From Nitrospirota bacterium (GTDB lineage: Bacteria; Nitrospirota; Nitrospiria; Nitrospirales; Nitrospiraceae), in NCBI GenBank assembly GCA_018971525.1, contig JAGXAR010000013.1, positions 2,389 to 66,388 on the forward strand: a DNA stretch of 64,000 nucleotides, given 5' to 3'. Each line of letters starts with the position of its first letter. Positions within the stretch are counted from its first letter, which is position 1. The notes beneath the pieces were generated by a model that was not told the origin of the DNA, did no database searches, and saw only the letters and a list, made by a program, of their open reading frames with translations. The position numbers and the translations under genes are program-made. This document shows positions 21,116 to 45,320 of the stretch, piece after piece.

Positions 21116-21134
21116 CTACCTTCTCGCGAATGGG

Positions 21135-22976: not shown

Positions 22977-24088
22977 GAGCGTTTCTCTCCCCGCGATCCT
23001 GAACGCAGTGCTTCCGGAGTGAGAGGTGCAGCAGCCCTCCCGAGGCCTTGATCGCCCTTAACGGCGTGGCGCACTGTCCCAATCGCAAAGGCAGCCCCGC
23101 TGTAGAGAAAGTAGAGCCAGTGCCATGGAATGGCTTGGGCCGCAAATCGGAGCCCTCGCTTCTCCAGAAAAAACCGGTAGAGCCGGGCATTGAGGATGAA
23201 GAGCATCAGCCCCATGACGGCGGCACCGGCCAGGAGAAGCGGCTGCCAGGGGGACAGGAACAGTGCACCCAGAATTCCGAACGTCAACACGACGCTCATA
23301 CGCCCGGAGATCCCGATGTTCAAATCGTTCACAAAACCGCGATTCCGATGTATGAGCTGAGTCCATGGCAGGGCTCGCTGAAAGAAGTCGGCCTGTAACA
23401 TCGACACGACCGTCCAGCGTTTCCAATGTTTGACCTGGAGGGACTTGCACAGCCGAATCGTATGACGAGCTTTCTTGAGGCGGTACCCCAGTTCAATGTC
23501 TTCTATAGAGGGCTTGATGTAGGTCTCATTGAAGCCACCCATCGTGAGGAATACTTCTCGACGGATCGCACCGCAGGCTCCCCAAAATGTTGAGGCCTCC
23601 TCGCGGCCGTTCTGATGGACATAATGATGGAGCAGGTTCCGGTATTGCGAGAGAAAGTTTGGCTCTTTGGGTTGATCATCATACGACCCGATAACCGCCG
23701 CTACCTCAGCATGCTGAACAAAGATCTCCCTCACCCGACGGATAACATTCTCAGGAACGGTCACATCGGCATCGACGAAAAAGAGAATGTCCGACTTCGC
23801 CCTCGATGCTCCAAGGTTTCTGGCACGACCGGGTCCTCCTGGTGCAGGAAAGCGATAAACGGTAACGCCGGCTGCTTCTGCATACTGCGATGACCCATCC
23901 GTGTCGCCATCGCCAACCACGATGAGTTCATCTGGTTGAGGCGCGGCATGCCGTATCGAGTCCAGACTCGCGCGAAACGTTGCGCCCCCGTTGTAGACCG
24001 GAACAATAACTGCGACGGTCAAGGGTGAAAGATTCAATGTTGTTTCCCCATCCCGGCGTATCACGCACCCAGTGCCGGAGCGAGTCAT
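22973..24088 (-). CDS. Glycosyltransferase family 2 with C-terminal TM helices
   Basis: [14 protein letters not shown]...[12 protein letters not shown]...FFVDADV. This is the first gene after a 309-bp AT-richer gap. Confidence 0.8.
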
Positions 24089-24397: not shown

Positions 24398-24769
24398 TTA
24401 GACACGCCGGGATTGCTCATTTTCTGGCACGACACCCGTCACAGCTCGCTGAAAGCCTTTGTCGACAAAGGACCGCATCATGTGCGCGCAGAGAGCGACC
24501 TGAATCGAGAGACCTCGAAAACCAGGCTCGGTAAACGGTTCATAAACATAAATACTTTTGCCCGGTAACGGAACGACAAGCGGCGCATAAGGGGACATGT
24601 AAATTCGATGAGGGGTTGCCCAGGCAACTGCAATCAGGCGGCCCTCGTAGCGTGCGACAAAACAAGTATGGCCGTGGCTGAAGCGATTCTGGACCAGCGA
24701 CTCCTGTCCTTTGGGTCGCAACTGGAGACACTCAGTCATGCGAGTATCTTCCAAACACTGGATCGTCAC
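24398..24769 (-). CDS. GNAT-family acetyltransferase (catalytic C-terminal part)
   Basis: CFVARYEGRLIAVAWA...YVYEPFTEPGFRGLSIQVAL resembles the GNAT beta4-alpha3 motif A. GTG start in a GTGA overlap with ORF 24766-24966. Confidence 0.5.
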   Translation of the reverse strand: MTIQCLEDTRMTECLQLRPKGQESLVQNRFSHGHTCFVARYEGRLIAVAWATPHRIYMSPYAPLVVPLPGKSIYVYEPFTEPGFRGLSIQVALCAHMMRSFVDKGFQRAVTGVVPENEQSRRV

Positions 24770-24966
24770 ACGTTCACGCGACGCGAGATCATCGTGATCC
24801 GCCCGTCTAACGCTCGCTCCAGCAACAAAACTCTTCTATACACAGTAGCCGCCAGAATCTTGAACCACACCTGTTCGAGCCGGTCTTTCCAAAATTTCAC
24901 GGCAGGACCATCGACGCACAGACTGTTTAGCTTCGCTACCCTGCTAAGGAATTTCTGATTTAGCAT
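24766..24966 (-). CDS. Possible detached N-terminal segment of the GNAT protein
   Basis: 66-aa ORF whose ATG lies 5 nt after the ATP-grasp stop. ...VYRRVLLLERAL... resembles the N-terminal extension of ~190-aa EPS-locus GNATs. Deleting 2 nt in the GTGTG run at 24766-24771 would fuse it in frame to ORF 24398-24769. Confidence 0.3.
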   Translation of the reverse strand: MLNQKFLSRVAKLNSLCVDGPAVKFWKDRLEQVWFKILAATVYRRVLLLERALDGRITMISRRVNV

Positions 24967-24970
24967 GTAT

Positions 24971-26317
24971 TCAAGAAAATCTTTGGTACATGTCTTCAAC
25001 GTCTTCCCGAGAGCTTCCCAGGAACACAAGATCGCACATCCCGTTGGCTAACCGCCCGGTGTTGTAGGGGATGACTCCACGCCCCGCGCAGGGATCGAAG
25101 AAAAACCGACTATGCATTTCTTGCAGTTCAGAAAAAGAGGCTGCCTTCGTTGTTATCTTGGCCGATAGAAAAGCCTTGATGAGAGGGCTCGAGCGTCCAG
25201 CCTGCCACGCGTTCAGACGCTCCATCAAGAATACCGGATAGGTTGCCGCATTTACTCTTGCGTTGATCTCGACAAAGATATGCTCATACGCCCCAGTCTC
25301 CGGATGAACATATTCGACGAAATCGAACCCGGCCAAGCCGGTGAATCCTCTCGTCTGTAGCCACTGGGCAAGTTTCCTCGCCGAACAGATCATGCCTGCC
25401 AGCGTCCTGGCAGTCGACGGAAACACGTTGCCCTTATGCGAGAATTTCTTGTCCACGCGTTGATCAGTGGCGCCCACGCACCAAATTGCACCGGTGTCAG
25501 GCTCCACAAACATCTGCACGTTCGGAGTCGCAACGATATCAAACATCACTTGCACGAGATAGATGTGATGGATTTGTTGCTCAACAAATGTTCTTAATTT
25601 CCGCTCGATGTCCTCGGAAGCCCCCTCGGCAACGAATGTGCCTGATCCCGCGGCACCATATGTCCCCCTCACAATCACTCTTCCGGTGTGAGAAACATAT
25701 CGCGCGATCACCTTTAGTAACGGAGTCACGTCGAGGCGGCTACAGTCAGAATGTGCGTGGAGCTCGACAATCTCTCCTGGAGCCAGGGGGACAGCCAGTT
25801 CGTATGCCTTGGCATGAGCGAGATGTTTCAGGTTGGCGTGCGCTACAATGTCGGCATTCCCACCCAGGACACGGATCGGCTTGCCCAGTGTGTCCTCCAA
25901 TACCGCCGCAAGATCAAATTCGGCAGACGATGCAAGGTAGGGATTCAGCACAACGCGGTTCCTGTCAGGAATCAGTTCGTGGATCGCACGAAGCGGCTTT
26001 GTGTTGCGGAGAAGCATGCTCGCAAGAGTCCAGTCCGGGTCATCACCGGACTCAGCCTTGATTTCTATAATGCGATCGCCTTTGGGACCAAGGCCTAGAC
26101 TCGACAGATAGTCGACGTACCGACGATCAACGTTGCCTACGACACAGACTATGTCATCCGGTCTCGCGAGAATCAGCGCTCGTTGGTCGTAATGCTCGTA
26201 CCCAGGGAGGTACGTCTCAAGGGCATTTCGTTGGACTAATGCAGTGATGTGGTGGGTAAAAATCTGAGTGACTTCCGTGTCCTCGATTGTACGAAGGATA
26301 GATGTCATTTCGTCCAT
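24971..26317 (-). CDS. ATP-grasp family ligase
   Basis: 448-aa ORF whose ATG is preceded by GAGGTGA. FDFVEY...FVEINARVNAATYP matches the E-x-N-x-R ATP-grasp core. Confidence 0.7.
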   Translation of the reverse strand: MDEMTSILRTIEDTEVTQIFTHHITALVQRNALETYLPGYEHYDQRALILARPDDIVCVVGNVDRRYVDYLSSLGLGPKGDRIIEIKAESGDDPDWTLASMLLRNTKPLRAIHELIPDRNRVVLNPYLASSAEFDLAAVLEDTLGKPIRVLGGNADIVAHANLKHLAHAKAYELAVPLAPGEIVELHAHSDCSRLDVTPLLKVIARYVSHTGRVIVRGTYGAAGSGTFVAEGASEDIERKLRTFVEQQIHHIYLVQVMFDIVATPNVQMFVEPDTGAIWCVGATDQRVDKKFSHKGNVFPSTARTLAGMICSARKLAQWLQTRGFTGLAGFDFVEYVHPETGAYEHIFVEINARVNAATYPVFLMERLNAWQAGRSSPLIKAFLSAKITTKAASFSELQEMHSRFFFDPCAGRGVIPYNTGRLANGMCDLVFLGSSREDVEDMYQRFS

Positions 26318-26413
26318 TTTCGTTCACCTCGCCCACATGGGGCGACGAGTATCGTTCCAGATAATAGGCCGTGGGTCCCTCGCACCTCTCAATTGAGCAC
26401 CTCCGATTCAGGC

Positions 26414-27160
26414 CTATCGTTTTTTGGCTTTCATGAATAACAGCTCCCAATTCATGCGACACGCGTTTCTTTCGACGGAATAGCCCACGTGCTTTCGAAT
26501 ACCCTCTACTACCTGGGCAGAGTCTGCTTTATCGACCCCGAACAACATTTGACAAAACCCTCCCATGGCCTGAGGGGAATCAAATTCCCAGTGAAATGGG
26601 ATCAGCGGTGACTCCATGATCACAAACCCACATCCCGCGATCTCTTCTTGGGTCTTGGCATGGATATAATTCCCTTTGTGTCCCATCGTATTGTGCTCGT
26701 TGACAAATCCGTCCAAGAATTCAGAGACTGCCGACTGGGCTCGCACGTCAGCAATAGTAAATGTGCCGCCCTGTCTCAATATGCGACAGGCCTCGGAGAA
26801 GAACCGTTCCTTCTCATCGACATGGTGCAACGCAGCCAAGCTGATGACTTTATCCACGGAGCCGGTCTCGACAGGAATATCCTCCAATGTTCCCAGCAAC
26901 ACGTTGGACGCGCCATTATCCCGGCAGAGATCGGCAAACACCTCTGATGTTTCGAGATGGATAAACGATAGGGTTCGATCGACAAAGTTTCTCAAATACC
27001 CACCGCCAGAGGGAACATCACAGACGATCTCTCCGTCTTTCAGGTCGGCCATGCGGACGACATGATGGAATTCCTCTGTTCGAGCCTGCGGGTATAGGGT
27101 CATCGCTTGATGATACAGATGACCCCTCTTTTGAAAGATATCGCGGTACGCTGTAAACAT
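26414..27160 (-). CDS. Class I SAM-dependent methyltransferase
   Basis: VCDVPSGGGYL (motif I) and VISLAALHHV (post-II) patterns. Confidence 0.75.
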   Translation of the reverse strand: MFTAYRDIFQKRGHLYHQAMTLYPQARTEEFHHVVRMADLKDGEIVCDVPSGGGYLRNFVDRTLSFIHLETSEVFADLCRDNGASNVLLGTLEDIPVETGSVDKVISLAALHHVDEKERFFSEACRILRQGGTFTIADVRAQSAVSEFLDGFVNEHNTMGHKGNYIHAKTQEEIAGCGFVIMESPLIPFHWEFDSPQAMGGFCQMLFGVDKADSAQVVEGIRKHVGYSVERNACRMNWELLFMKAKKR

Positions 27161-27163
27161 TGG

Positions 27164-28525
27164 TCACCCCGTGTTCTTCCTGCCCACGTCGCGGTGATCG
27201 GGCCACTCAAATCCGTCATAAGCTGATCGAATGCGGGATCGATAGACTCGAAATTTCCCGTTTGCGTCCATCGGGATTTCCGATACGAGCTCTACCCGGA
27301 ACTGCACGTCCGGACCGACCAACTCGACGACCGGTTGAACCAACGCTGCCATCTCCTGGGTGGACGGTCTATGAAACGGAACCACTCTCATCACGATAGA
27401 ATCCAAGCCCTCCTGGGTAACCTGAAACTCTCGAATCCAGGGAACCCTAATGACCCCGAGTTCATATGGATGGACAACCCTGTTGCCGGGAAGCACGAAA
27501 TAGTCGATCATGCGCCCTTGGATCGATCGAATCGTCGAGAACGGTTGTCCGCATGGACAGGCTTGGCTTCCCTTTGTGACCACATCGCCAAGCTGGTATC
27601 GGATCAGCGGCATCGCAAAGGAAAGCAAGTCGGTGCCCACAATTTCTCCCCTCTCCCCTTCCGCCACAGGGATACCATCCCGCAGGACTTCCGTAATTAA
27701 CCCGTCGTCACATGAGTGATACTCCCCTGTTGCCCGGCATTCCCAAGCAAGAAGGTGAAATTCGATGCTTCCATACGTGTCGCAGACGGGCACGGAAAAC
27801 CCGTCCTGAATCTGTTGACGCATGAGCGGCGTCAGCACTTCTCCGCCGGTATTCACAAAGCGTAGCCGGAGTGATCGCAGTTCCTCGCTACTGATTGTCT
27901 GCGCGATTCTGGCCAACACGCCGGGATAGCCCGACACGACAGCGGGCCTGAACCGGTGCAGAGCCCGAACAATCTCCTCAGGTGATTGCAGGGCGTTGAC
28001 GACCATTTGGCGTGCAATCCCGAAGGTGGCCAGCATGCGCTGAACTATTTGGTGATCCTGCCGTTGGTGACTCCTAAGCCCCATCACATAACAAAGCTTG
28101 TCGCTCGCTCGGAGGCCCAGCGACCGGAGCGCACGTAACGCGAATGCGCCGTGCAGACGCTCCTCCATCCAAGTACGGCGCACGATGAATGGTCTCCCGG
28201 TTGACCCACTTGAAGCACGAGTGATTAGACACTGCGGCTTCACATGTCGGGCGACTACCTCTTCGACCGGTAAACCTTGCATATCACTCCTGGAGGTGAT
28301 GGGCACGGCAGCAAGATCCTGGACCGTTTTGATGTCGTGAGGTTTCAGTCGATGTCGATCAAAGATCTCGCGGTAGTAGGCCACATTGCGATAGGCATGT
28401 TCGACCAACCGGCGAAGACGTTCGTTTTGGAAGGCAACGAGCTGCTCCCGTCCGACATGCGGATGGCGCAGCATGGAATAGAGCGTCGATACAGGGCTGA
28501 AATGAGACATACTCGTCCCTTTCAT
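27164..28525 (-). CDS. Adenylate-forming enzyme, phenylacetate-CoA ligase/CapK/F390-synthetase family (copy 3)
   Basis: TRASSGSTGRPF AMP-binding loop and a CPCG motif shared with the two paralogs. The ORF-track start is GTG 28537; ATG 28525 forms an ATGA overlap with the AsnB-like stop. Confidence 0.75.
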   Translation of the reverse strand: MKGTSMSHFSPVSTLYSMLRHPHVGREQLVAFQNERLRRLVEHAYRNVAYYREIFDRHRLKPHDIKTVQDLAAVPITSRSDMQGLPVEEVVARHVKPQCLITRASSGSTGRPFIVRRTWMEERLHGAFALRALRSLGLRASDKLCYVMGLRSHQRQDHQIVQRMLATFGIARQMVVNALQSPEEIVRALHRFRPAVVSGYPGVLARIAQTISSEELRSLRLRFVNTGGEVLTPLMRQQIQDGFSVPVCDTYGSIEFHLLAWECRATGEYHSCDDGLITEVLRDGIPVAEGERGEIVGTDLLSFAMPLIRYQLGDVVTKGSQACPCGQPFSTIRSIQGRMIDYFVLPGNRVVHPYELGVIRVPWIREFQVTQEGLDSIVMRVVPFHRPSTQEMAALVQPVVELVGPDVQFRVELVSEIPMDANGKFRVYRSRIRSAYDGFEWPDHRDVGRKNTG

Positions 28526-30411
28526 GATGGGCGACACTCTTGAACAAATAAGTCATCCCATAGTTGGACGCTGAGGACACCGAGTAACTCTTTTCCGAAA
28601 TGCCCCTTGCCATGTTGATGCTGTTCAAGCATGTGTCGAACATGCTGAGGATTGAAGTAGCCTTTCGTGTGAAGCCTGCTCTCGGACAAGGCGTCTTCGA
28701 CAAATTCAGGCAGACGACGTTGCCATGGCCAGAATGGAGCGGATAGGCCGCGCTTCCTGCGTTTCAGGATTTCCGTGGGTAAGACACCTTCCAAAGCCCG
28801 GCGGAGAATATGCTTTTCATGAAGCCCGCGCATTTTCAGGGTGGGTGGAATCTGGCTGCACAATTCGACAAATTCATGATCGAGGAACGGCACACGTGCC
28901 TCCAGGCCATAGGACATAGAGGCAGCGTCCAGGGTTCTCGTGATGTAGTCCGTGAGACGCGAATTGATTTCCATGTACTGCAGTTGAGCAAAACGGTCCC
29001 ATCGTTCAAAATCTTTAGGAAGATGGAGTTGTTGCTCTGTATCGGTGAGAAGACTGTGGCCGCATCTGAGATGCTCGGAAAAGAGGCTATCGTGGCTCTT
29101 ATCGGACGCGTTATCGATGATCCGTATGTATCGAGCGAGGCCCATCTTGGAAGGAGCGGCGAATGCCCGGCTTGATCGAGACCATTTTCTCCTGAGGAAC
29201 GGGATGCTTGCGATGAGGCGCCGCAAACTCAGTGGAAGGTTGATGAACGGCTGAAGCAACCGTTCGACACGGTACCAATGATAACCGCCAAAGACCTCAT
29301 CCGATCCCTCTCCGGTCATGACGACTTTCACATGCTGCGCAGCTAACCTGGCGAGCAACATATGGGGGATGCCCCCCGCTGAGAGGTTTGGATCTTCACG
29401 ATGCCAAATTACTCTCGTTAACAGGTCGAAGTCGGCGGTCGTGCAGGTGGTGATGTGGTTGAGGAGATCGTAGCCTCCATACTCTGAGAGGATCTTGTTC
29501 GGACCTATCTCGTTATACAGTGGATCTTCAAATGCCACGGAGAAAGTCTGCACAGGGCCGGCTCCTAGTCGGCTCATCAATCCCGCCACTGCGCTTGAAT
29601 CGATTCCACTGCTTAAGTAGGAACCTAACGGCACATCGCTCCGGAGGTGGAGGCGAACGGACTCTTCGAGTTTGGCGCGCACCGCGTCGGCCCACTCCTG
29701 GACGCTTCGCCGAGGGCCTTCCTCTGCGATCGAAGGAAAGCAGAGATCCCAATAGCGCTGGATCGTGAGACGCCCGTTTTCATAGAGAAGATAGTGTGCC
29801 GGCTGAAGCCGCCGGATTCTGCTCAAGAGAGTTTTTGGCGCTAAGACAAACCCGACCGCAAACAGCTCCTTCATTGCACCGGCGTCAACCTGTCGTTCGA
29901 TACAACCGCTGGCGAGAATAGCTTTGTACTCAGACGCAAAAAGCAACGCGCCGGGAGTGATTGCATAGCTCAATGGCTTGATGCCGAACCGATCTCTAGC
30001 CAACATGAGCCGCCGATGACGGGAATCCCAGATAGCGAAGCTGAACATACCTCTCAGGAAATCCACACAGCGCACCCCATGGTCTTCGTACAAGTGAACG
30101 ATGACTTCGACATCCGAATTGGTCCGGAAACGATGGCCGGAGGTCTGCAGGTTACGACGCAGTTCTTGGTAGTTGTAGATTTCTCCATTGCAAACAACAG
30201 TGATAGAGCCATCTTCATTGGAAATGGGTTGATCACCGGTTTGCAGGTCGATGATGCTCAGTCGGCGGAAGCCGAGACCGACACCCGGCCCAACAAAGTA
30301 CCCGTCCCCATCCGGTCCACGGTGAGTCATCATGTTTGTCATGCGATGAAGCATATCCCGGTCGACCGGCCTCTTAGGAGCTGAATACACAACGCCGCAC
30401 AATCCGCACAT
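28522..30411 (-). CDS. Asparagine synthase (glutamine-hydrolysing)-family amidotransferase
   Basis: MCGLCG N-terminal Cys nucleophile and YLSSGIDSSAVAG PP-loop. 629 aa. Confidence 0.85.
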   Translation of the reverse strand: MCGLCGVVYSAPKRPVDRDMLHRMTNMMTHRGPDGDGYFVGPGVGLGFRRLSIIDLQTGDQPISNEDGSITVVCNGEIYNYQELRRNLQTSGHRFRTNSDVEVIVHLYEDHGVRCVDFLRGMFSFAIWDSRHRRLMLARDRFGIKPLSYAITPGALLFASEYKAILASGCIERQVDAGAMKELFAVGFVLAPKTLLSRIRRLQPAHYLLYENGRLTIQRYWDLCFPSIAEEGPRRSVQEWADAVRAKLEESVRLHLRSDVPLGSYLSSGIDSSAVAGLMSRLGAGPVQTFSVAFEDPLYNEIGPNKILSEYGGYDLLNHITTCTTADFDLLTRVIWHREDPNLSAGGIPHMLLARLAAQHVKVVMTGEGSDEVFGGYHWYRVERLLQPFINLPLSLRRLIASIPFLRRKWSRSSRAFAAPSKMGLARYIRIIDNASDKSHDSLFSEHLRCGHSLLTDTEQQLHLPKDFERWDRFAQLQYMEINSRLTDYITRTLDAASMSYGLEARVPFLDHEFVELCSQIPPTLKMRGLHEKHILRRALEGVLPTEILKRRKRGLSAPFWPWQRRLPEFVEDALSESRLHTKGYFNPQHVRHMLEQHQHGKGHFGKELLGVLSVQLWDDLFVQECRPS

Positions 30412-30444
30412 AGTTACTCCTGCTCTCGGCTGTCCCTGTTCCTC

Positions 30445-31752
30445 TTAACCGACGCTTGCTGAAATTCGTTCCGACCCGGCGCCATTTTTGATGACCTGCA
30501 AATCAAAGCCGGGACTGAGCTCATCGCAGTGGTCACACACAATCGTCTTGCTACAGTGTGTCTTCCAACACCCAATCTCGCCGAATTGGGCGAAACAGAT
30601 TCGTGAAAGGTGGTCTGTTGCTCGTCCCCGCAAGAGCACGAGATCCCCATGGCGAAGTTCCGATTTCAGATGCTCAGCCGCCATCAACAGATTTGCAAAA
30701 CCATGCACCCTGTCAGGGTGCATGCCTGCCGCCACGGCGGCCCTGGCCGCATGATGCGCATGATCACTGACAAATATCGCCACGTCGGCCACGCGAGAGG
30801 CTATGCGACCAAGTTCTTTGCTCCGGTCACGCGGTTTCAGTGATTTCTTATGCCACCCGGTAACATCACTGATGACCATCACCCGTCTTGCTGCTTGAGC
30901 ATCTCCCAGGACCTTCACGGCTGCTTGCCAGGTATCGTAGGAGCCGTTCAATTCATCCCGTATCATCGTCGCGCCATTGGGCAATTTGATTGGTTGCATC
31001 CGCGCGGGAAACGGCTCCACATTGCCTACTGCAGCAGTGGCAGCTTTTAGCGGAACCCCGCAGGCCAGCGCCCCTGCAATCCCAGCCAGCACCGAACTGG
31101 CCCAGTGCCGACCGACCAGTTTCGTCCTGATCCACTCTACCTCAGTCCTTGTGTGCACGCGGAGCGTCAAGGTCTCAGGCCAGGAAGAAGACACTTCATC
31201 CGCCCATAGATCCTGTCCAGCCAACAGTCCGAATGTTTTCACCTGGCATCGACGACCTGAAGCCATCCGTCCAACTCTCGAATCATCAGCGTTGAGAATC
31301 GCCAACCCACTCGGGAGTAACGCATCAAGGAGAGACGATTTCTCCGCTGCAATTTGCTCAAGAGATGAAAATACTTTCGTGTGGCTTTTCGCGACTGTCA
31401 AGATGATGGCCACATGAGGACGCACCAATCGAGCCGATCTCTTGATCAACCCCGGCCCGTCTGTTCCCATCTCAATGACTGCGAAGCGGTGCCATGGTCG
31501 TACCCGCATCATAGTGAGAGGCACTCCGTAGCGATCATTTTGATTGTTCAGTGTCGACACTGTGCTGAACTGAGTGGACAGAATCGCAGCCATGCATTCC
31601 TTTGCGGTGGTTTTCCCGACACTGCCGGTGATGGCAATGAATGTGGTGCGAAACAGCATCCGCCGCCATAGATACGCCAACGCATAGAAGAGCCAAAGGC
31701 GGCACGACCAGAGAAGCGCTCCTACATTGATAGCACGCACTCGATAACTCAT
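30445..31752 (-). CDS. Mur-ligase-family protein (MurF-like core) with Cys-rich C-terminal tail
   Basis: IAITGSVGKTTAKECMA P-loop of Mur ligases. The C-terminus reads CWKTHCSKTIVCDHC. Confidence 0.75.
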   Translation of the reverse strand: MSYRVRAINVGALLWSCRLWLFYALAYLWRRMLFRTTFIAITGSVGKTTAKECMAAILSTQFSTVSTLNNQNDRYGVPLTMMRVRPWHRFAVIEMGTDGPGLIKRSARLVRPHVAIILTVAKSHTKVFSSLEQIAAEKSSLLDALLPSGLAILNADDSRVGRMASGRRCQVKTFGLLAGQDLWADEVSSSWPETLTLRVHTRTEVEWIRTKLVGRHWASSVLAGIAGALACGVPLKAATAAVGNVEPFPARMQPIKLPNGATMIRDELNGSYDTWQAAVKVLGDAQAARRVMVISDVTGWHKKSLKPRDRSKELGRIASRVADVAIFVSDHAHHAARAAVAAGMHPDRVHGFANLLMAAEHLKSELRHGDLVLLRGRATDHLSRICFAQFGEIGCWKTHCSKTIVCDHCDELSPGFDLQVIKNGAGSERISASVG

Positions 31753-31802
31753 CTCGCACCTTAATATGTTTGATAAGAATCAGACCCGGCGGCGGCTATG
31801 TT

Positions 31803-32993
31803 CTAAGATGTTCCCTCGTCCATCATCGGTTGGCGACCAGACTCAGTAAGGAGGTAGAGCTGATGTAGGCCTCCGATCCATAGCGATCGGGGACTCTGAG
31901 ACTCGTCCGCATGGATCGCAGACAAGCGTCGTTCGTCCCGAAAAATAAGGCCCGTATGAGAGAGAAAGTCCTTCACCACGCCGTTCACGCTATTCCAACG
32001 GACCAAGAGATCGTAGGACGTGTCAGTCTTGTCATACAGAACATTCCCCCATTTGCGTTTATAGCGAACCAATCCGTCGTGCAGTGAAGGCCGGGCGCCT
32101 CTGAAATCTACTTCTGCACAACTCAACTGGCCGGCATGCGCGATGCTGTAATAATAGAGTGCCGCCATTATTCCTCTCTTGTTCAGCGGGAGCTCACCCG
32201 TAGCCATGCCTATGGCCTGAAGGTCGAGTGTGTCGTTTTTCTGTTCGAAGAGCATGCCAGCAAGTGGATGCTTGTCCCGAATGACCCAGAGAATTCCCCC
32301 TTTTCGGAGACTACGTCGCAAGTCGTACCGGCTCTTGACGAAAGCCATTGCTCCGTGACGGGCTCGCGAGAAGGGGACGTACATGGAATCGTAGAACTCT
32401 TGAAACCGTTCCTCCCGCTCGGTGACCAGCGGTTGTAGCTTGTGCTTGCGGGCCAGGCGCATATCCTCGCGGATACTACGGTTGCAACGCACCAATGAAT
32501 CGAGATCCTCCGGTACAGCGAGCCGCATGCCGACCCATTCAGGAACCGCGAGATAGTCCCTCCCGGGAAATTTCTGCGCCGACAATCGGTCTACACGGGC
32601 GATAGTCAGATCGGCTGACGCGCGCAGGCGATCTAGCAGAGCAGGCAGTTCCCATGACAACACATTTCCGACCAGTTCGCGTTGGGGCTTCCCAACGAAA
32701 AACCTGCTCGGCAAGTAGCTGACCCAGGGATCATGTCCCGCCACCAGCAGTGTCCCCTGTCGACCAGATTGATTGGTTGCTCCCCGCAGCAACACGACAG
32801 GGATCCGTCGCAGTCCCAGGCGGGCCACTGCAAAAAGGCCGTAGCGCGTGAGCAGGATTTGTGCTTTGCCAGAAAGGCGGGAGATGGTCCAATCGACCAC
32901 CTTGCTTGCTAGCTGATTCATGCCCTCCCTCTGCTCCTTTTCATTCGACGGACCGCCACAACATTCGCTAAGGGCTGCGAGGCCCCATCGCAC
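31803..32993 (-). CDS. FemAB/BioF2-like GNAT-fold acyltransferase (CelD-like)
   Basis: The C-terminal ...AEVDFRGARPSLHDGLVRYKRKWG matches the FDFG...YK..WG pattern of FemAB-like acetyltransferase domains. Start is uncertain: GTG 32993 or ATG 32921. Confidence 0.55.
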   Translation of the reverse strand: MRWGLAALSECCGGPSNEKEQREGMNQLASKVVDWTISRLSGKAQILLTRYGLFAVARLGLRRIPVVLLRGATNQSGRQGTLLVAGHDPWVSYLPSRFFVGKPQRELVGNVLSWELPALLDRLRASADLTIARVDRLSAQKFPGRDYLAVPEWVGMRLAVPEDLDSLVRCNRSIREDMRLARKHKLQPLVTEREERFQEFYDSMYVPFSRARHGAMAFVKSRYDLRRSLRKGGILWVIRDKHPLAGMLFEQKNDTLDLQAIGMATGELPLNKRGIMAALYYYSIAHAGQLSCAEVDFRGARPSLHDGLVRYKRKWGNVLYDKTDTSYDLLVRWNSVNGVVKDFLSHTGLIFRDERRLSAIHADESQSPRSLWIGGLHQLYLLTESGRQPMMDEGTS

Positions 32994-32999
32994 TAGGCT

Positions 33000-34277
33000 C
33001 TAAGAATCGCCCTTAATAGACAGCTTGGAAATAAAGCTCCTGAACTTTGGCGTGTCGTTCCGGAAGCCACTCACGCATTGAATGTCTACCCTGACGGGCT
33101 CACCCAAATGCTCCATGAAGCGAGATCGCAACTGCACTAGTGCGTCCTTGTTTGGATCTCCGCGAAACGCCAGCTCCACAACGAGGTGCTCCGCACTTTC
33201 CTGGATGATGCGATATTGCTCGAGTCTGTCCAGCTTCCTCAGGATGAAGGTGAACGGCCAGAGAGATACGATCTTCCCGCTGGGGAGCTTCACCGCGTCG
33301 TCCAATCTGCCGAGAGGAGAGCTGATCAAAGGGAACGGTGATCCACAGGAACATGGCTTCTTCGTGATCTTGTATACGTCTCCGAGGCGATAGCGAATGA
33401 AGGGTTGCGCCAAAGCAGTCAGGCTGGTGACGACCGCTTCGCCGGAGATTCCTGGTTCGCCGGGATACTTGGAATTTGAACACTCAAGAATCACATGGTC
33501 TTCGTTGACATGAAGCCCCTCGTGCGCCGGGCATTCAGCTGCAATCCTCCCAACCTCATTCGCACCATAGAAGTTGAACATTTCTGTCTTGAGATTGCCG
33601 TGAATACCGGCCTTCAGTATTTCGTCGCACACTTCCGCTGAAGTGATAAGCATCCTCGGGTTGACGACCGTGTCTAGGCGATAGTTCACTCTGCACAACA
33701 GCGCTTTGAGAACCGTCGGGTAGGCCCACAGGATCGTGGGCCGGCTGCGTTTCAGCTGGTCGATTTGATCGTCCAAAGAAAGAGTCGGGGGAATATTGAC
33801 GCTACGATAGAAACCCAAACGCTGGTGGAACCGCACGGCATGTGGTTGAGCGGGGCCGAGTACCGCCAGACGATCCTGCGGGCGGAATCCGATCGACAGC
33901 AATGTCCGAAATTCAATCAGCTGCCTCCTTCTCAACTCGCGGCCTGTCAGATAGATCGCAAACGGCTTTCCTGTCGTTCCACTGGTATGCACCACCTGAC
34001 AGGCTGCAAGATCGATCCCCTTCGCGGTGCTGCGTTCCACGCCTGCCGCCCTGAGATCGTCTTTCGTCGTGATCGGTATGTGCTGGAGGTCTTTGACGGT
34101 TCGGATATCATCCGGCAACAGTCCGGCTGACTGAAAGAGCGACCGGTAGTAGGGCACATTCTCATATGCGTGCCGAATCAGGGCCTGAAGCTTTCGATCC
34201 CGCACAGCTTCTAACTCCAGAGAAGGCAGCCCCCGATTGTTCATCAACCGTCGAAGTTCGAGCGCCTCGCCGATCAT
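33000..34277 (-). CDS. Adenylate-forming enzyme, PaaK/CapK/F390-synthetase family (copy 2)
   Basis: HTSGTTGKPF loop and CSCG motif. Start reset to ATG 34277 (ATGA overlap with the upstream paralog). Confidence 0.8.
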   Translation of the reverse strand: MIGEALELRRLMNNRGLPSLELEAVRDRKLQALIRHAYENVPYYRSLFQSAGLLPDDIRTVKDLQHIPITTKDDLRAAGVERSTAKGIDLAACQVVHTSGTTGKPFAIYLTGRELRRRQLIEFRTLLSIGFRPQDRLAVLGPAQPHAVRFHQRLGFYRSVNIPPTLSLDDQIDQLKRSRPTILWAYPTVLKALLCRVNYRLDTVVNPRMLITSAEVCDEILKAGIHGNLKTEMFNFYGANEVGRIAAECPAHEGLHVNEDHVILECSNSKYPGEPGISGEAVVTSLTALAQPFIRYRLGDVYKITKKPCSCGSPFPLISSPLGRLDDAVKLPSGKIVSLWPFTFILRKLDRLEQYRIIQESAEHLVVELAFRGDPNKDALVQLRSRFMEHLGEPVRVDIQCVSGFRNDTPKFRSFISKLSIKGDS

Positions 34278-35623
34278 ATCGACACACCCTGCTTGCACTT
34301 CGACATAACGGGTCTGAACTTGCCGGATGCTTCGGGCTCCAATGCGGTATAGAATTCGCACTCGATCACAGCCGACTCCCCAAGCAGTCGTCGCAAGTCA
34401 GCATGAATATCGCCGACGACCAGCTGATACGATTGATAATCCACCGTGACAAGCTTCAGCTCAAATCGCTCCGGCTTATGTTGGATGAATTGGTATTTCA
34501 ACACTTCATTTCTCCGGCTCAACGTTGCCCAAACCGCCCGGGGATGAACAAACCCCCCGTTTGCCAGAAAGAGAATATCCTCTACCCTGCCTTCAAGTTC
34601 AGAAAGCAGAGGCAAGACGCGGCCACATGAGCAATTCCCAGTCGCGAGGGATGCGACATCCCCGAGACGATAGTTGAGAAGGACAGTTCCTTTGTTGACG
34701 AGATTAGAAATCACCACCTCCCCCTTATCTCCGGCCGGGATATCCTCGCCGTTCGCGTTCATAATTCTTACATGACAGAGGTCATCATGGAGATGAAAGC
34801 CATGCCGCGCTTCGCAAAGAAATCCGATCTTGAAAGCTTCTACCGCGTTGTACATTGAGAGGACTGGTACGCCAAACTCCTTCTCGATAAGCGCCTTCCC
34901 GGCTTCAGTCATACATTCCGCTCCATAGAACAACACCCGCGGGAGATGCATCTGGATTCCCTTGAACCTCAGGGTCCTGAAGAACGCCTCCCAATAGGAG
35001 CCATAGCCGACGAGGACGTCAGGCCGAAAAGAATTGATCGCATCGACGACCTGCTCGATGGGCTGCAAGACATCTAACAGCAGGCGCGGCCTGGAAGAAG
35101 AAGCAAACGTATGCTTTTGATAATAGTCCCAGACTTTGGTGATCGTAGACCTAGGCCGGACGATGTAAGCCTCTCTGAGCCCAAACCTTTTTCCGCATAT
35201 GGTCGAAAACACAGATCTTTCGCGTTCCCCGTACGCGATGTTGGCGAGAAGCGAGTCGTGATCATGGTGAATCGTGGAGGGCTCGCCGGTGGAACCGCTC
35301 GTCGTAAACGCGATGGAGTTCTTCCCTCGCCTCGATGTAGAGATAAAGAGAGGTGGGTTCTTACGGACTGTTAACTTCTCTACCAAGGGAATGCGGCGAA
35401 GATCATGGACCGTTTTGATGCTCCTCGGATCAATGCCTTCCCTTCGAAAGAGATTCTGGTAGTAGGGGACTGTGTTCGCTGCGTAGGTGACGACCCCTCT
35501 GAGCCTCGCATCGCGAAGAGCCCACAACTCCTCTTCGGATCGGTAAGGAATGCCTCGCTGACCACGCAAGTTCGCGCAAACCACGCCGCTTCCGTACACC
35601 TTGCGTAGAAAGTCTCTAATCAT
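34274..35623 (-). CDS. Adenylate-forming enzyme, PaaK/CapK/F390-synthetase family (copy 1)
   Basis: TTSGSTGEPS loop and CSCG motif. The N-terminal ...TVPYYQNLF is typical of the family. Confidence 0.8.
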   Translation of the reverse strand: MIRDFLRKVYGSGVVCANLRGQRGIPYRSEEELWALRDARLRGVVTYAANTVPYYQNLFRREGIDPRSIKTVHDLRRIPLVEKLTVRKNPPLFISTSRRGKNSIAFTTSGSTGEPSTIHHDHDSLLANIAYGERERSVFSTICGKRFGLREAYIVRPRSTITKVWDYYQKHTFASSSRPRLLLDVLQPIEQVVDAINSFRPDVLVGYGSYWEAFFRTLRFKGIQMHLPRVLFYGAECMTEAGKALIEKEFGVPVLSMYNAVEAFKIGFLCEARHGFHLHDDLCHVRIMNANGEDIPAGDKGEVVISNLVNKGTVLLNYRLGDVASLATGNCSCGRVLPLLSELEGRVEDILFLANGGFVHPRAVWATLSRRNEVLKYQFIQHKPERFELKLVTVDYQSYQLVVGDIHADLRRLLGESAVIECEFYTALEPEASGKFRPVMSKCKQGVSI

Positions 35624-36434
35624 CGTGCTCCCCGTCCGGAGAAATCCTCCTCTTCTCAGCTCGCAGGGCGATGAAGTGCCCGGTCAGATAGCGCGTCGGC
35701 CATTGCGACATTCTTTCGAACATCCGCAGCCAGCGCAAATAATGTTGTTGTGCGGGAGGCTTTGTATGTGAACACAAGATCTTTGCGACGAGTACGGCGA
35801 TCATGCGGGGGCAGTGCAGCACAGCCGTGACATCCCTCACTTCGAAGCCTGCCTCCCGCAGCAATCTCTGTAACCGCCGGGGACCGCATGTGGCGCCAAC
35901 AAAGTAGGGAACGATACCCAACCGGTTCAATAGTTTGAACGGCAGATGGTTACGAACCGCAATAATCGGATTCGCGAGATTATCCAAAGTCACGATGAGC
36001 TGCCCGTCCTTGCGAAGCACTCGATGCAATTCCCGCAAACTCACAGAGATCTCCTCCAGCGTCTGAAAATGATCCAGCGTTGAATTCGACACCACAACAT
36101 CGAACGACTCCCGTCGGAACGGCAGATCGCGTACATCGGCACAGGCCCCACGAACGCGCACCTCGCCACGACAGGCCAATTGTACGTTCTTGAATGACAG
36201 ATCCATCCCGACGACACTGTGGGCGCGGGCCTGCAGGAATCTAGTGAGACCTTCTCCCACCGCTTCGTCAAACGTATCGGTCTTTAACAGCCGAGGAACT
36301 GGCTGTTCGGGAAGCCAACGAAGGAGAAGGGATTGATTGATCGCGTCACTATGTTTCCGCCAGAGGCGATCCGGGCGGGTCTTTTTCCATTCGTCCGCAA
36401 TGGACTCCCAGTAGCTCGTCTCCTCAAGTATCAC
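35616..36434 (-). CDS. Class I SAM-dependent methyltransferase
   Basis: VVGMDLS and FDVVVSNSTLDHF motifs. Start reset to GTG 36434, 7 nt downstream of GGGGAGG (the ORF-track start is TTG 36491). Confidence 0.7.
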   Translation of the reverse strand: MILEETSYWESIADEWKKTRPDRLWRKHSDAINQSLLLRWLPEQPVPRLLKTDTFDEAVGEGLTRFLQARAHSVVGMDLSFKNVQLACRGEVRVRGACADVRDLPFRRESFDVVVSNSTLDHFQTLEEISVSLRELHRVLRKDGQLIVTLDNLANPIIAVRNHLPFKLLNRLGIVPYFVGATCGPRRLQRLLREAGFEVRDVTAVLHCPRMIAVLVAKILCSHTKPPAQQHYLRWLRMFERMSQWPTRYLTGHFIALRAEKRRISPDGEHDD

Positions 36435-36670
36435 TATGTAGCCTCCCCACCTAAACAATGGCAGTGTAGGGCGTTTAGGTCTTGCCCACAATACCTCCCC
36501 GCTAGAGCAAGGCCCTACAGAAGAGGGGTGGCCGCCCTCACCGCTCTATTCGGCATTGCTGATTGGAAACCGCACGCGAAGGCATTTCCGCAATGTGCTA
36601 CCAAGAGAACCAACAGCCCGGTCGGAAGGTCGGGGAAGGAGGAACAGTTAGAACTTTTTCAGCCGAGAGG

Positions 36671-37684
36671 TCAGTGTGGCCGGTCTCGCGCATCTCTGCC
36701 GCGCAGCGAACGATGTCCCCGATCCATCATGGCAAGGCACAGCAGCCCGATTCCGATCCAGACCAGCTCGCGGAAGCGCCGGAGCAACGCGAAGGTGATG
36801 CCGGTGACGTCGGTGTAGCCGAAGGCTTTCAACAGAAGCAGATTGCCGCCGTCTTGCGCGCCAAGGCTGCCGGGGATGAAGAAGGTGCCCCCTTTGATGA
36901 AGACAGAGAGCGCCCCGATAGAAACGGCAGAGGGCGCCATCGCCGGCCCACCGAGATAATAGATGATGACGTACACTTCCAGCGCTTCCGCCATCCAACC
37001 AAGGAAGAAGAGCCCGGTGGAGGTATAAAAGGCCGGACGGTTATGGCTGTAGAATTCCAAGATCGTTCGATCCAGCGACCGTAACTTTTCCTCGTGTGCT
37101 TCGAGATAGGCAATTTTCAGCCCGATCTTCCGTAGAACTTCCAATATCCACGTAAAGAGCCCTCGCCGCTGCACGAACACGAAGGCCGCAGTCCCGAAGG
37201 CCAGCAGGCCCACGCTCAAGAGTGCTGCGGCCACGATCCGACCGGATGAATCCCTCCCACCTATCACCCACACACCCAAAACGATGCCGAGCAGAATGAA
37301 CAACACTTCGGCAATCGTCATCGTCGTTTTCGCAATGACGACCGAGGCGAGCCCTTCCACCATCGGCACATCGTGCTTCTTGAGCAGATAAGCCTTGAGC
37401 GGCTCGCCCCCGACGTAGGCGGTCGGCGTGGTCATGTTCACCACCTCACCAGCGGTCCGGATCGCGAGCACCCGCCAAAATGGAATATTCTTAGCCGAGG
37501 GGCCAAGCGTGACTTTCCAACCGTAGGCTTCGACGGCGTACATGACGACGGAAGGAATCAGCAGGACGAGGAGCGCGACCGGCCCCAATTGCGCCGCCGC
37601 GTCGTAGATGCGCCCAAGCCCGATATGCCACACGAGGAAACCAAGGGTGAGGAGACCGAGGACGAGTAGGAGATATCGCAGCAC
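36671..37684 (-). CDS. Flippase-like polytopic membrane protein (lysylphosphatidylglycerol-synthase TM-region family)
   Basis: 337-aa ORF with GTG start, about 8 TM helices and an N-terminal LLLVLGLLTLGFLVWHIG pattern typical of this family. Confidence 0.55.
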   Translation of the reverse strand: MLRYLLLVLGLLTLGFLVWHIGLGRIYDAAAQLGPVALLVLLIPSVVMYAVEAYGWKVTLGPSAKNIPFWRVLAIRTAGEVVNMTTPTAYVGGEPLKAYLLKKHDVPMVEGLASVVIAKTTMTIAEVLFILLGIVLGVWVIGGRDSSGRIVAAALLSVGLLAFGTAAFVFVQRRGLFTWILEVLRKIGLKIAYLEAHEEKLRSLDRTILEFYSHNRPAFYTSTGLFFLGWMAEALEVYVIIYYLGGPAMAPSAVSIGALSVFIKGGTFFIPGSLGAQDGGNLLLLKAFGYTDVTGITFALLRRFRELVWIGIGLLCLAMMDRGHRSLRGRDARDRPH

Positions 37685-37698
37685 GCGCGGCTAGGCAC

Positions 37699-39132: not shown

Positions 39133-39217
39133 ATTCTATTCCGTCTCTCGTGTCTCGTCGTTCGTATCTCGCACGGCCGGTCAGGGCTTCAGATGAAACG
39201 TCCCACGACCGGCGCAG

Positions 39218-39937
39218 CTACAGTCTCGGCAACACGTCCCGTTCCGCTTTGGTCACATCTTCCAGGAAATCGATTTCGGTCCAGGGCAGCCCACCGATCT
39301 TCTCATGTCCGACTTTGACATTTTTGAAAAACCCCACGAGCGCATCTTCATATTCCATCTGCCAGGCCTCGCGGTCCACATAGGTCCTGAGCGACGCAAC
39401 CACATGGGGCGTATCGGCCTGTCGGACCTTGAGAAACCCCACGCCTTCTCCGGCATAGTCATAGTGCGACGGCATCTTTTTCGTCAATGCAATTACGCGC
39501 CCGCCTTCGACCACGACCATGCACTCTTCTCCGGTTTGCTTGACGGTTTCATCCATGAGCAGCGCGTTCTCGCAGGGGGATTGCACCAGTCGACGCAAGA
39601 TCTCTTGATGGAAAAGCACATCTGCATCCATGACGATCGCATCGTCATCCAACGCGGTGCGCGCGATCCACAGCGAGGAAATGCTGCCGCGGTGGAACTG
39701 CTCGTTGACGAGAAAATTCACGCGCACCCCGCAAGAGTTTGCTGCCACAGCCTCGCGAATCATCTCCTGCTTGTAGCCCACGACCACATCGGCACTCTGA
39801 ATCCCCACACTCCGGAGCGACGTGAGGTAGCGATGCAGGAGAGTCTGACCGCCGATCTCGATGAGGCACTTGGGGCGATGTTGCGTGATCTGCCACAGGC
39901 GCTTCCCGACCCCGGCCGCGAGGATGATGGCTTTCAT
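39218..39937 (-). CDS. Nucleotidyltransferase (LicC/PntC-like cytidylyltransferase)
   Basis: MKAIILAAGVGKRL pyrophosphorylase loop. ATG 39937 forms an ATGA overlap with the aminotransferase stop (the ORF-track start is TTG 39949). Confidence 0.75.
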   Translation of the reverse strand: MKAIILAAGVGKRLWQITQHRPKCLIEIGGQTLLHRYLTSLRSVGIQSADVVVGYKQEMIREAVAANSCGVRVNFLVNEQFHRGSISSLWIARTALDDDAIVMDADVLFHQEILRRLVQSPCENALLMDETVKQTGEECMVVVEGGRVIALTKKMPSHYDYAGEGVGFLKVRQADTPHVVASLRTYVDREAWQMEYEDALVGFFKNVKVGHEKIGGLPWTEIDFLEDVTKAERDVLPRL

Positions 39938-41016: not shown

Positions 41017-41187
41017 CTTGTCTCTCTCTTCCTTCCTTCCACCCCGTACCAGCGATCGAAACCGCTTCGACCGAGCGCGTCCAACGAGGGCTTCACTACC
41101 GTTCTCACTCCCCTACACTCGCGGCGCCGAGGCGCCGCGTTTCCCGACAGGCTGCGCGTTGCGCGAACAAGGGAGCGGCTCGATCGC

Positions 41188-42302: not shown

Positions 42303-42332
42303 ATTATAAGCTATGCCTCGAGACATTCTCAA
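42303..42332 (-). promoter_or_regulatory. Candidate sigma70-type promoter of the 42260->24398 operon
   Basis: On the minus strand, TTGAGA (42332-42327), an 18-nt spacer and TATAAT (42308-42303). The -10 box lies 42 nt upstream of ATG 42260, inside a 121-bp divergent intergenic region. Confidence 0.4.
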
Positions 42333-44455: not shown

Positions 44456-44483
44456 GCGTTGATCCAACGTCACGGAGGAAATC

Positions 44484-44876: not shown

Positions 44877-44905
44877 GACCGTAGCAGGAACAAGGAGGTG
44901 CCCTC

Positions 44906-45292: not shown

Positions 45293-45320
45293 ACGGAGTG
45301 CCTGCTGTACAGAGACCCCT

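Follow-up and report, generated by a model that had tools for sequence, protein, structure and literature searches.

A ligase-rich gene island with a predicted role in amide-bond tailoring in a Nitrospirales surface-glycoconjugate locus

We analysed a stretch of 64,000 nucleotides of Nitrospirota DNA (assembly GCA_018971525.1, contig JAGXAR010000013.1; this whole 64-kb stretch is called the window here) and in particular a ligase-rich block of genes on its minus strand. From ~42260 down to ~200 nearly all genes of the window are on this strand, forming one large glycoconjugate locus, a cell-surface sugar-polymer locus of the Nitrospira type. The block takes up 12 kb of it (24398-36491) and encodes ten enzymes: two S-adenosylmethionine (SAM) methyltransferases, three PaaK/CapK-like adenylating enzymes, a Fem-like protein, a MurF-like ligase, an AsnB-type amidotransferase, an ATP-grasp ligase and a broken GNAT acetyltransferase (Table 1). 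It is placed between glycosyltransferase genes, upstream of the gene for a Wzx-like flippase. Its genes follow one another closely on a single strand. Neighbours overlap by 4-8 nt or are separated by gaps of mostly <100 nt, a spacing that fits co-transcription; larger gaps are seen at 36491-36671 (~180 nt) and at 24088-24398 (~310 nt). The minus strand does contain every open reading frame (ORF) listed in an initial annotation of this DNA, with boundaries that agree with the proposed ones exactly or to within a few codons.

Families were assigned by Pfam and NCBIfam profiles with curated cutoffs. Six of the ten enzymes are ATP-dependent and activate carboxylates or form amides (three adenylate-forming enzymes, two of the acyl-phosphate type and one PP-loop amidotransferase). 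The family matches are accompanied by catalytic motifs that, upon inspection, are intact, and the initial count of at least six such enzymes is confirmed. All proteins of the block look soluble: a convincing transmembrane segment was seen in none. Among the family matches of the block there is no exporter, regulator or self-resistance gene. Likewise, the scanned ORFs of the window include no exosortase, no non-ribosomal peptide synthetase (NRPS) and no polyketide synthase (PKS), in agreement with the initial annotation, nor do they include any carrier protein. The GC content of the window is ~57%, and the closest protein relatives are found in metagenome-assembled genomes (MAGs) of Nitrospirales. 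The block is lower in GC than its flanks (0.53-0.55 for 24000-36000 against 0.58-0.61 for the adjoining head-group module at 36000-42000), which fits a separate evolutionary history.

Table 1. Genes and other features of the ligase block (upper ten rows) and its surroundings, with the evidence for each.
Feature	Position	Strand	Evidence or remark
SAM methyltransferase MT-a, first gene of cassette A	35616..36491	-	Methyltransf_11, E 1e-17
PaaK/CapK-like enzyme 1 (PaaK1)	34274..35623	-	449 aa; DVU_1553 and PaaK NCBIfam matches below cutoff
PaaK/CapK-like enzyme 2 (PaaK2)	33000..34277	-	ORF open to 34361; 425-aa start at 34277 more likely
Fem/aaPGS-fold tandem-GNAT protein, uncharacterised family	31803..32993	-	predicted fold; probably 386 aa
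MurF-like Mur ligase without UDP-binding N-domain, C-terminal Cys4 motif	30445..31752	-	Mur_ligase_M + Mur_ligase_C
AsnB-type glutamine-dependent amidotransferase	28522..30411	-	Asn_synthase, E 3e-92, + GATase_7
PaaK/CapK-like enzyme 3 (PaaK3 type), partner of the ATP-grasp ligase	27164..28537	-	family matches and motifs
SAM methyltransferase MT-b	26414..27160	-	Methyltransf_11
ATP-grasp peptide/amino-acid ligase, PGM1/BesA/LdmS type	24971..26317	-	PreAtp-grasp + ATP-grasp_3
Damaged GNAT acetyltransferase gene	24398..25029	-	N-terminal piece 24766-25029; GNAT core 24398-24769 ends at premature TAA
Head-group module: split Ppd-like thiamine pyrophosphate (TPP) decarboxylase, 2-aminoethylphosphonate (AEP) transaminase, nucleoside triphosphate (NTP) transferase, CDP-alcohol phosphatidyltransferase, HpnL/LPG_synthase_TM protein	36671..42260	-
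Candidate sigma-70-like promoter	42303..42332	-	TTGAGA-18-TATAAT, 11/12; consensus match only; directly upstream of first head-group gene
Downstream trio: family 2 glycosyltransferase (GT2), PRK07208 flavoprotein, 105-aa membrane protein	20798..24088	-	family and topology evidence

Pairwise, the three PaaK/CapK-like proteins share only 25-29% identity, yet the core motifs of adenylation are retained in each: the P-loop ((T/S)SG(T/S)TGxP), Y-x-x-x-E, GD, the GRxDD hinge and a catalytic C-terminal lysine (PaaK1 has TSGSTGEP, YRLGD, GRVED and GKFR). Their matches to PF00501 are weak. DVU_1553 and PaaK are the best NCBIfam matches of all three, far below cutoff; with the PaaK equivalogs TIGR02155 and NF041878 the proteins score 100-132 bits against cutoffs of 646-700. 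Sequence matches in the PDB are PaaK (4r1l, the best), AjiA1 (6wuq) and NatL2 (6siw), so that the nearest solved relatives are PaaK and two ligases that form esters or amides independently of coenzyme A (CoA). Together, family matches, motifs and PDB matches bear out the class membership proposed at first, that of PaaK/F390-like adenylating enzymes. Homologues in related loci carry the new Pfam domain CapK_C (PF27533), for instance a protein in locus L070 with 53% identity to PaaK3. The pair of PaaK1 and PaaK2 recurs in a Chloroflexota locus (L019, ~50% identity) and in a metagenome locus (L137, 62% and 51%). For PaaK2 the shorter start chosen in the initial annotation is supported by the 425-aa gene call in a near-identical contig (L071).

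The Fem-like protein has no Pfam or NCBIfam match, including PF02388, PF09924 and PF13480, and only a few of its homologues carry weak PF13480 matches. Its length of 386 aa is supported by the gene call in L071. An AlphaFold2 (AF2) model (mean predicted local distance difference test, pLDDT, 87.7) shows a double-GNAT fold. The top Foldseek matches of this model are the aminoacyl-tRNA-dependent peptide synthases Sbb17 and Sba18 (in complex with streptothrisamine; E 1.6e-11 to Sbb17), followed by FemX (E 1.6e-8), the aminoacyl-phosphatidylglycerol synthase (aaPGS) domains of MprF, and FemA. CoA-using tandem-GNAT acetyltransferases, VipF and Eis, are among the matches as well. What remains of the initial label, FemAB/BioF2-like, is thus the predicted Fem fold, without a family match by sequence. 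Clustered at 50% identity, this large family comprises 1380 clusters (E<=1e-30), and it has an invariant motif in the C-terminal GNAT domain, D306-G307...Y311-K312-x-K314-W315-G316. This DG..YK.KWG motif may correspond to the catalytic aromatic-lysine pair known from FemX (F304-K305) and DhpH-C (F328-K329) (PMC12945691). Within the family, fusions are found (P0295, P0313, P0347 and P0061) to Methyltransf_11 (P0313), to GNAT, to an LpxL-type lipid A acyltransferase (P0295) and to a PqqD/radical-SAM/SPASM module that resembles maturases of RiPPs, peptides made on the ribosome and modified after translation. Judging from these partners the family probably acts on several substrate classes.

The Mur-ligase-family, AsnB-type and ATP-grasp identities given initially are all reproduced by Pfam and NCBIfam. 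The Mur-like protein matches PF08245 (E 1e-35) and PF02875 and has the P-loop GSVGKTT. Its closest PDB sequences are MurF, yet it scores 211 bits against a cutoff of 289 with the MurF model TIGR01143, aligning to model positions 64-414 only and to residues 90-403 of E. coli MurF. Because the alignments start only at residue 64-90, the protein lacks the UDP-binding N-domain. Its C-terminal end carries the motif CWxxxCx5CDxC (C395, C400, C406, C409), of which all four cysteines are invariant in 111/111 full-length homologues (homologues P0117-P0236; genes in loci L004, L021, L045, L059, L067-L070 and L103) and which is retained even in proteobacterial copies with only 30% identity. The motif is probably a zinc knuckle. 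Source databases label these homologues MurF, a label which we consider wrong for the Cys4 family. An exact look-up of the sequence from the window returned no identical record. The gene neighbourhoods of the family are heterogeneous; the Mur-like gene at times stands by itself (L067, L069) and so is no obligate partner of the other genes.

The AsnB-type protein has the nucleophile Cys2 (MCGL) and the PP-loop SSGIDSS. It passes TIGR01536 (472 bits against a cutoff of 267) and falls short of the XrtA/PEP-CTERM amidotransferase TIGR03108 (521.6 bits against 816.9); with this cutoff missed and no exosortase found in the scanned ORFs of the window, a PEP-CTERM system was rejected. The ATP-grasp protein matches PreAtp-grasp PF18604 (34.7 bits, cutoff 27.5) and is at the cutoff for ATP-grasp_3. 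Its AF2 model (pLDDT 91.2) has as top Foldseek matches 8ynd, BesA (8yi6), PGM1 (3wvq/3wvr) and LdmS (7r8q), with TM-scores of 0.70-0.77, and these structures are peptide or amino-acid ligases. The equivalog for LdmS, an L-Asp--L-Met ligase (NF047900), is missed by far (24 bits against 475).

The first methyltransferase, MT-a, may start at the ATG at 36434; genes of its type adjoin Fem-like genes in many loci, and in P0313 the two are fused. MT-b is kept at 76-96% identity across related Nitrospira loci. The 'GNAT piece(s)' of the initial annotation do belong to the GNAT family, the Pfam match falling on a 123-aa piece, though they turn out to be a single damaged gene split over two frames. In the closest genome (L018) this gene is intact (~215 aa). 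The two-frame split is common to the window and L071, an independent contig with 96-98% identity, whereas the premature TAA reads TAT in both L018 and L071 and so is peculiar to the window. That the damage comes from sequencing error alone was rejected: the two-frame layout also occurs in the independent assembly, and the stop is a substitution.

The initial annotation had named orthology to a characterised pathway as a finding that would speak against its proposal. When this was checked all equivalog cutoffs were missed, and therefore no ORF of the block appears to be an ortholog of a characterised pathway. As a separate observation, the PaaK-like enzymes, both methyltransferases and the NTP transferase of the head-group module (39218-39949) have as best or near-best NCBIfam matches the families of the DVU_1551/DVU_1553/DVU_1556 cassette of Desulfovibrio, far below cutoff. 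The locus may be distantly related to that uncharacterised cassette.

Further evidence comes from a comparison set of ~150 related loci. Neighbours were counted in two subsets: 62 genome loci found through the Fem-like protein (neighbours within 10 kb), and the 38 loci of at least 6 kb among 80 metagenome loci found through the ATP-grasp protein. A PaaK-like gene is present in 34/62 Fem-found and 33/38 ATP-grasp-found loci, AsnB in 19/62 and 9/38, a methyltransferase in 16/62 and 13/38 and a Mur-like gene in 7/62 and 17/38. The Fem-found loci furthermore include a PRK07208 flavoprotein (12/62), a GNAT (6/62) and an ATP-grasp gene (3/62), and a Fem-like gene is seen in 7/38 ATP-grasp-found loci. 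The clustering exceeds chance, given that both query proteins, independently of each other, led to loci in which these gene types occur together. Mapped gene by gene, the ATP-grasp-found loci show the PaaK3-type gene directly upstream of the ATP-grasp gene, with the Mur-like gene adjoining this pair.

Several recurring arrangements can be distinguished. The order MT-PaaK-PaaK-Fem is found in many Nitrospira loci and in one deltaproteobacterial locus; the PaaK3-type gene with the ATP-grasp gene, with or without the Mur-like gene, recurs widely; and AsnB-PaaK3-MT recurs in Nitrospira loci. A compact five-gene cassette, MT-GNAT-Fem-AsnB-Mur with the Cys4 type of Mur-like protein, occurs outside glycan loci in MAGs of Betaproteobacteria and Casimicrobiaceae (L004 8566-14455; L021 951-6919; L059 5861-11776; L063 8326-14297). 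In the flanks of the proteobacterial cassettes there are no glycan-related Pfam matches. Spurious long ORFs make ORF clustering noisy in these high-GC loci, in which only the five cassette families are robust. Parts of the cassettes are also joined as fusions (MT+Fem, GNAT+Fem, and GNAT-GNAT-MT in L070, 8233-10359). This conserved adjacency and these fusions couple the genes to one another and link their products in a single functional toolkit.

The differences between close relatives comprise entire cassettes. Locus L072 (87-92% identity) has the gene order of the window without PaaK1 and PaaK2. Nitrospira loci L001 and L008-L016 have cassette A (MT-a, PaaK1, PaaK2 and the Fem-like gene), AsnB and PaaK3 with no head-group gene nearby, and L008-L016 have neither a Mur-like nor an ATP-grasp gene. 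In L002 and L044 the head-group module and the downstream backbone are kept at 57-89% identity, and of the block there are just one or two Fem-like genes; the backbone consists of GT2, flavoprotein, small membrane protein, 608-aa membrane protein, PMT_2, GT2 and epimerase. Candidatus Nitrospira neomarina has the ATP-grasp gene with a GDSL-like neighbour only, and not the block. On account of these differences, and of its lower GC, the block is a mosaic, exchangeable island. In every Nitrospirales locus the cassettes are bordered on the same strand by glycosyltransferase genes or by membrane-glycan genes. In other lineages L070/L090 and L075 show a glycan setting too, with cassettes among glycosyltransferase and phosphodiesterase genes.

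Taking these results together, we propose that the block is a variable tailoring island in a Nitrospirales surface-glycoconjugate locus, which would carry out stepwise, carrier-free amide-bond tailoring of a lipid-linked glycan. The probability we attach to this proposal is roughly 0.5. The island probably builds and caps a short amino-acid side chain independently of both the ribosome and NRPS enzymes. It would have been assembled from two portable cassettes: A as given above, and B, consisting of the N-domain-less MurF-like ligase, AsnB, the third CapK-like enzyme, MT-b, the PGM1-type ATP-grasp ligase and the decaying GNAT. All enzymes would act in the cytoplasm, without a carrier, on a nucleotide- or polyprenyl-linked intermediate. 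At the start a CapK-like enzyme would adenylate the carboxylate of a sugar intermediate and couple it to an amino acid through the latter's amino group, as has been proposed for VpsH of Vibrio cholerae (discussed below). The ATP-grasp and MurF-like ligases would then each convert a free carboxylate into an acyl phosphate and add one amino acid, after which AsnB would turn the remaining carboxylate into a carboxamide with glutamine as nitrogen donor. The Fem-like protein would put an aminoacyl unit on a free amine, most likely from aminoacyl-tRNA, and the methyltransferases, plus the GNAT where it is intact, would cap the product. Finally, the Wzx-like protein would flip the decorated unit, which would be exported with the glycan. 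Cassette differences among close relatives would yield strain-specific surface chemistry. The proposal retains part of an earlier one, in which the block was seen as an amide-decoration toolkit. That view is plausible and is backed in part by the enzyme classes, motifs, solubility, lack of a carrier or NRPS and conserved adjacency found here; a dependence on head group and uronic acids finds no support in the comparison of loci.

A number of observations weigh against this proposal. The 64-kb window showed no UDP-sugar 6-dehydrogenase and no other gene for uronic acids, although such genes could lie elsewhere in the genome, and the amidation of uronic acids suggested in the initial annotation has accordingly no local support. 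The cassettes also occur in non-glycan neighbourhoods (L004, L059, L063, L096, L104, L121); they may therefore make free metabolites, and glycan decoration is not their sole possible use. For the Fem-like model the TM-scores are low (0.35-0.50), and both profile searches and searches with the C-terminal domain against PDB sequences gave only noise, with no sequence link to Fem families, so it is solely by its fold that the protein is counted among them. The strong association of Fem-like and PaaK-like genes fits an acyl-CoA or acyl-adenylate donor equally well as tRNA. The order of the steps is purely what we infer.

A wider form of the proposal can be put forward only as a tentative possibility. 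According to this, CapK-like enzymes, PGM1-type ATP-grasp ligases, Cys4 MurF-like ligases, AsnB and a tRNA-dependent Fem-like family would constitute a widespread and so far unrecognised carrier-free peptide assembly line, found in Nitrospira and many uncultured phyla, which would build a capped oligopeptide resembling a stem peptide (a 'second stem peptide') on a glycan other than peptidoglycan or on a phosphonolipid.

Alternatively, the product of the cassettes might be a free metabolite, small and peptide-like, whose synthesis is independent of NRPS (an osmolyte, a signal or an antibiotic, comparable to N-acetylglutaminylglutamine amide, NAGGN, or dapdiamide); the genes would then just happen to be located inside a glycan locus. 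The finding of the five-gene cassette alone among central-metabolism or unfamiliar genes in Proteobacteria agrees with this. So does the group of PaaK3-type and ATP-grasp genes (with or without Mur) in distant lineages, which adjoins aldolase, BKACE and B12 genes, or the gene for an amino-acid kinase, or one that is Q_salvage-like. The closest ATP-grasp structures are all from small-molecule pathways, and the logic of dapdiamide synthesis is alike; the VpsH paper names dapdiamide ligases as the nearest structural relatives (PMC13463779). Against this, the Nitrospirales cassettes are without exception embedded in glycan genes, those of L070/L090 and L075 are so again, and the block has no export, regulatory or self-resistance gene. 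We therefore hold a free metabolite to be a rather unlikely product of the block in the window.

It might also be argued that the block serves the head-group module next to it. The Fem-like protein would then aminoacylate the amine of an AEP head group on a phosphonolipid or phosphonoglycan, in the manner of a split MprF, with the ligases extending the chain, the methyltransferases N-methylating it and the LPG_synthase_TM protein flipping the product. The block does directly follow the genes for the CDP-alcohol transferase and the LPG_synthase_TM protein, both in the window and in L072, L017 and L002. Moreover, the Fem-like fold matches the MprF domains, P0295 joins a Fem-like domain to a lipid A acyltransferase, and AEP is the phosphonate analogue of ethanolamine phosphate, the amine used by the capsule enzyme Cj1438C (see below). 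The two halves of the split TPP decarboxylase together exceed the cutoff for Ppd and miss both ComDE cutoffs; sulfopyruvate decarboxylase was accordingly rejected for this enzyme, with the absence of a phosphoenolpyruvate (PEP) mutase leaving some doubt. The AEP transaminase is just under its cutoff, and the CDP-alcohol phosphatidyltransferase has 477 aa. Since no PEP mutase was found in the scanned ORFs across the window, AEP synthesis by its genes is putative. The module is present in only 2/62 Fem-found and 2/38 ATP-grasp-found loci, and block and module each occur without the other: L001 and L008-L016 have the ligase genes and no module, and in L002 and L044 the module is almost free of ligases, L044 having only a Fem-like fragment. 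The adjacency of block and module is therefore no conserved functional link. The functional tie drawn in the initial annotation is thus not upheld, and modification of AEP by the block seems distinctly unlikely.

Still less probable is that the PaaK-like proteins are ordinary acyl-CoA ligases and the Fem-like and GNAT proteins acyl-CoA-dependent N-acyltransferases, the island N-acylating amino sugars with unusual organic acids. Fem-like genes are most tightly partnered with PaaK-like ones (the 34/62 loci mentioned above), often as PaaK-PaaK-Fem, and a tRNA-dependent enzyme would not need PaaK. CoA-using VipF and Eis are among the fold matches, and CoA ligases are the nearest sequence relatives of the PaaK-like proteins. 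The top fold matches of the Fem-like protein are, however, tRNA-dependent enzymes; the PaaK clade includes the CoA-independent ligases NatL2, AjiA1 and BagE, and VpsH adds glycine. The Mur-like, ATP-grasp and AsnB enzymes would also be left unexplained. Housekeeping genes, with MurF for peptidoglycan and AsnB for asparagine, have a negligible chance of accounting for the data: AsnB does pass TIGR01536 and databases do speak of MurF, but the Mur-like protein lacks the MurF N-domain, misses the MurF cutoffs, has a Cys4 tail and is not in a dcw (cell-division and cell-wall) context, and both genes are variably present or absent among close relatives.

The genes downstream of the block encode many GT2 and GT4 enzymes, a PMT_2 enzyme of the GT-C fold, the Wzx-like flippase (Polysacc_synt) and a phosphodiesterase-family protein. 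Among Nitrospirales, no neighbour accompanies the cassettes more constantly than the trio directly downstream; the observation draws on the window and on L001, L008-L016, L021, L023, L024 and L092. Its PRK07208 flavoprotein has an amine-oxidase fold with three C-terminal transmembrane helices and also adjoins a betaproteobacterial five-gene cassette. Overall, promoter-like sites are rarer in the sequence than after shuffling, and terminator-like sites show no enrichment. Four tandem PilZ genes (44039-45780, plus strand) are found just beyond the start of the locus in divergent orientation, and L002 has an upstream PilZ gene as well; this suggests control of the glycan locus by cyclic di-GMP (c-di-GMP). 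Further away are unrelated neighbours: a TetR-MFP-AcrB efflux operon (45958-51085; MFP, membrane fusion protein), an AdoMet decarboxylase (51751-52401) and a group resembling polyprenyl synthase, epimerase and carotenoid-synthesis genes (60061-62960). In the last group the epimerase ORF (61058-62041, plus strand) is overlapped by a longer antisense ORF without a family match.

Among the nitrifiers of wastewater flocs and biofilms Nitrospira hold a key place, and their surface polymers are, to our knowledge, almost unexplored. Should the glycan indeed be furnished with short amino-acid chains that are amidated and methylated, this would explain surface diversity at the level of strains. It would also provide a function for three families that are now 'hypothetical' or mislabelled MurF, namely the Fem-like family (~1,400 clusters), the Cys4 MurF-like family and the pair of PaaK3-type and ATP-grasp enzymes. 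Furthermore, it would bear on a question that has been standing since 2006, the role of AsnB, FemAB-like and AMP-ligase genes in the loci for extracellular polysaccharides (EPS) of environmental bacteria. Because the ligases are soluble and carrier-free they are practical targets for work in vitro, and possible biocatalysts for amide bonds. The main leads are the group of PaaK3-type, ATP-grasp and Cys4 MurF-like genes, the large Fem-like family and the five-gene proteobacterial cassette.

A literature search for the gene combination yielded precedents for single enzymes and no description of this set; the enzyme classes are known and their recurring combination has not previously been characterised. 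Dapdiamide is made by the adenylating ligase DdaG, the AsnB-like DdaH and the ATP-grasp ligase DdaF, and NAGGN by Ngg/AsnO, with the use of a GNAT as well. These systems resemble the block in that a short amide-linked chain is made without NRPS or carrier by an adenylating ligase, an ATP-grasp ligase and an AsnB-like enzyme. Their products are free small molecules, however, and they have no Mur-like or Fem-like protein and no glycan context. In XrtA/PEP-CTERM EPS loci of environmental bacteria, AsnB-type enzymes of TIGR03108, FemAB-related proteins and an AMP-ligase co-occur, the same gene types as in the window. The window differs in that AsnB is below TIGR03108 (521 against 817 bits), the Fem-like protein has no NCBIfam match and no exosortase was found, so that the link to such loci drawn in the initial annotation stays an analogy of gene types.

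VpsH, which is CapK-like, is genetically required for the glycine amide on L-GulNAcA of the lipid-linked disaccharide of Vibrio polysaccharide (VPS), and its proposed mechanism is ATP-dependent carboxylate activation (PMC13463779). Compared by description rather than by sequence, it shares with the block a soluble CapK/PaaK-like adenylate-forming enzyme in a Wzx/Wzy-type locus, and in the window, too, the CapK-like genes have GT2/GT4 genes and the gene for a Polysacc_synt flippase on their flanks. VpsH acts singly and adds one glycine, whereas the window has three paralogues together with ATP-grasp, Mur-like, AsnB and Fem-like proteins and no visible uronic-acid pathway. Cj1438C amidates glucuronic acid (GlcA) in the growing HS:2 capsule of Campylobacter jejuni with ethanolamine phosphate or serinol phosphate (PMC11800397). 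Here too an ATP-dependent amide joins a sugar carboxylate in a glycan to a small amine, and its ethanolamine phosphate is the phosphate analogue of AEP. Cj1438C differs in being a domain of a multidomain glycosyltransferase in an ABC-transporter capsule system, and in carrying out a single step rather than being part of a multi-ligase set.

With respect to the Fem-like protein, the best structural match of the model is the group of Orf11, Sba18 and Sbb17 (BD-12, streptothricin-type; PDB 9wqx/9wqy), which are tandem-GNAT proteins too. Orf11 moves glycine from tRNA to the amine of an amino sugar (PMC12945691). The likeness is limited to 16% identity and TM-scores of 0.38-0.50, and this group acts with aminoacyl-tRNA on a small-molecule antibiotic intermediate. 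The comparison with the peptidoglycan stem peptide and cross-bridge is broader, since there Mur, ATP-grasp (Ddl-type) and FemABX enzymes jointly build a peptide on a sugar (PMC2922099, PMC12945691). The Mur-like protein of the window differs by its lack of a UDP-recognition domain and its Cys4 tail, the ATP-grasp enzyme is of the PGM1/BesA type and not Ddl, the Fem-like protein represents a separate family that is undetected by Fem Pfam models, and the genes are outside a cell-wall cluster. Operons in which peptide ligases of the Mur, ATP-grasp and GNAT/Fem types are mixed and matched had already been noted by comparative genomics (PMC2922099).

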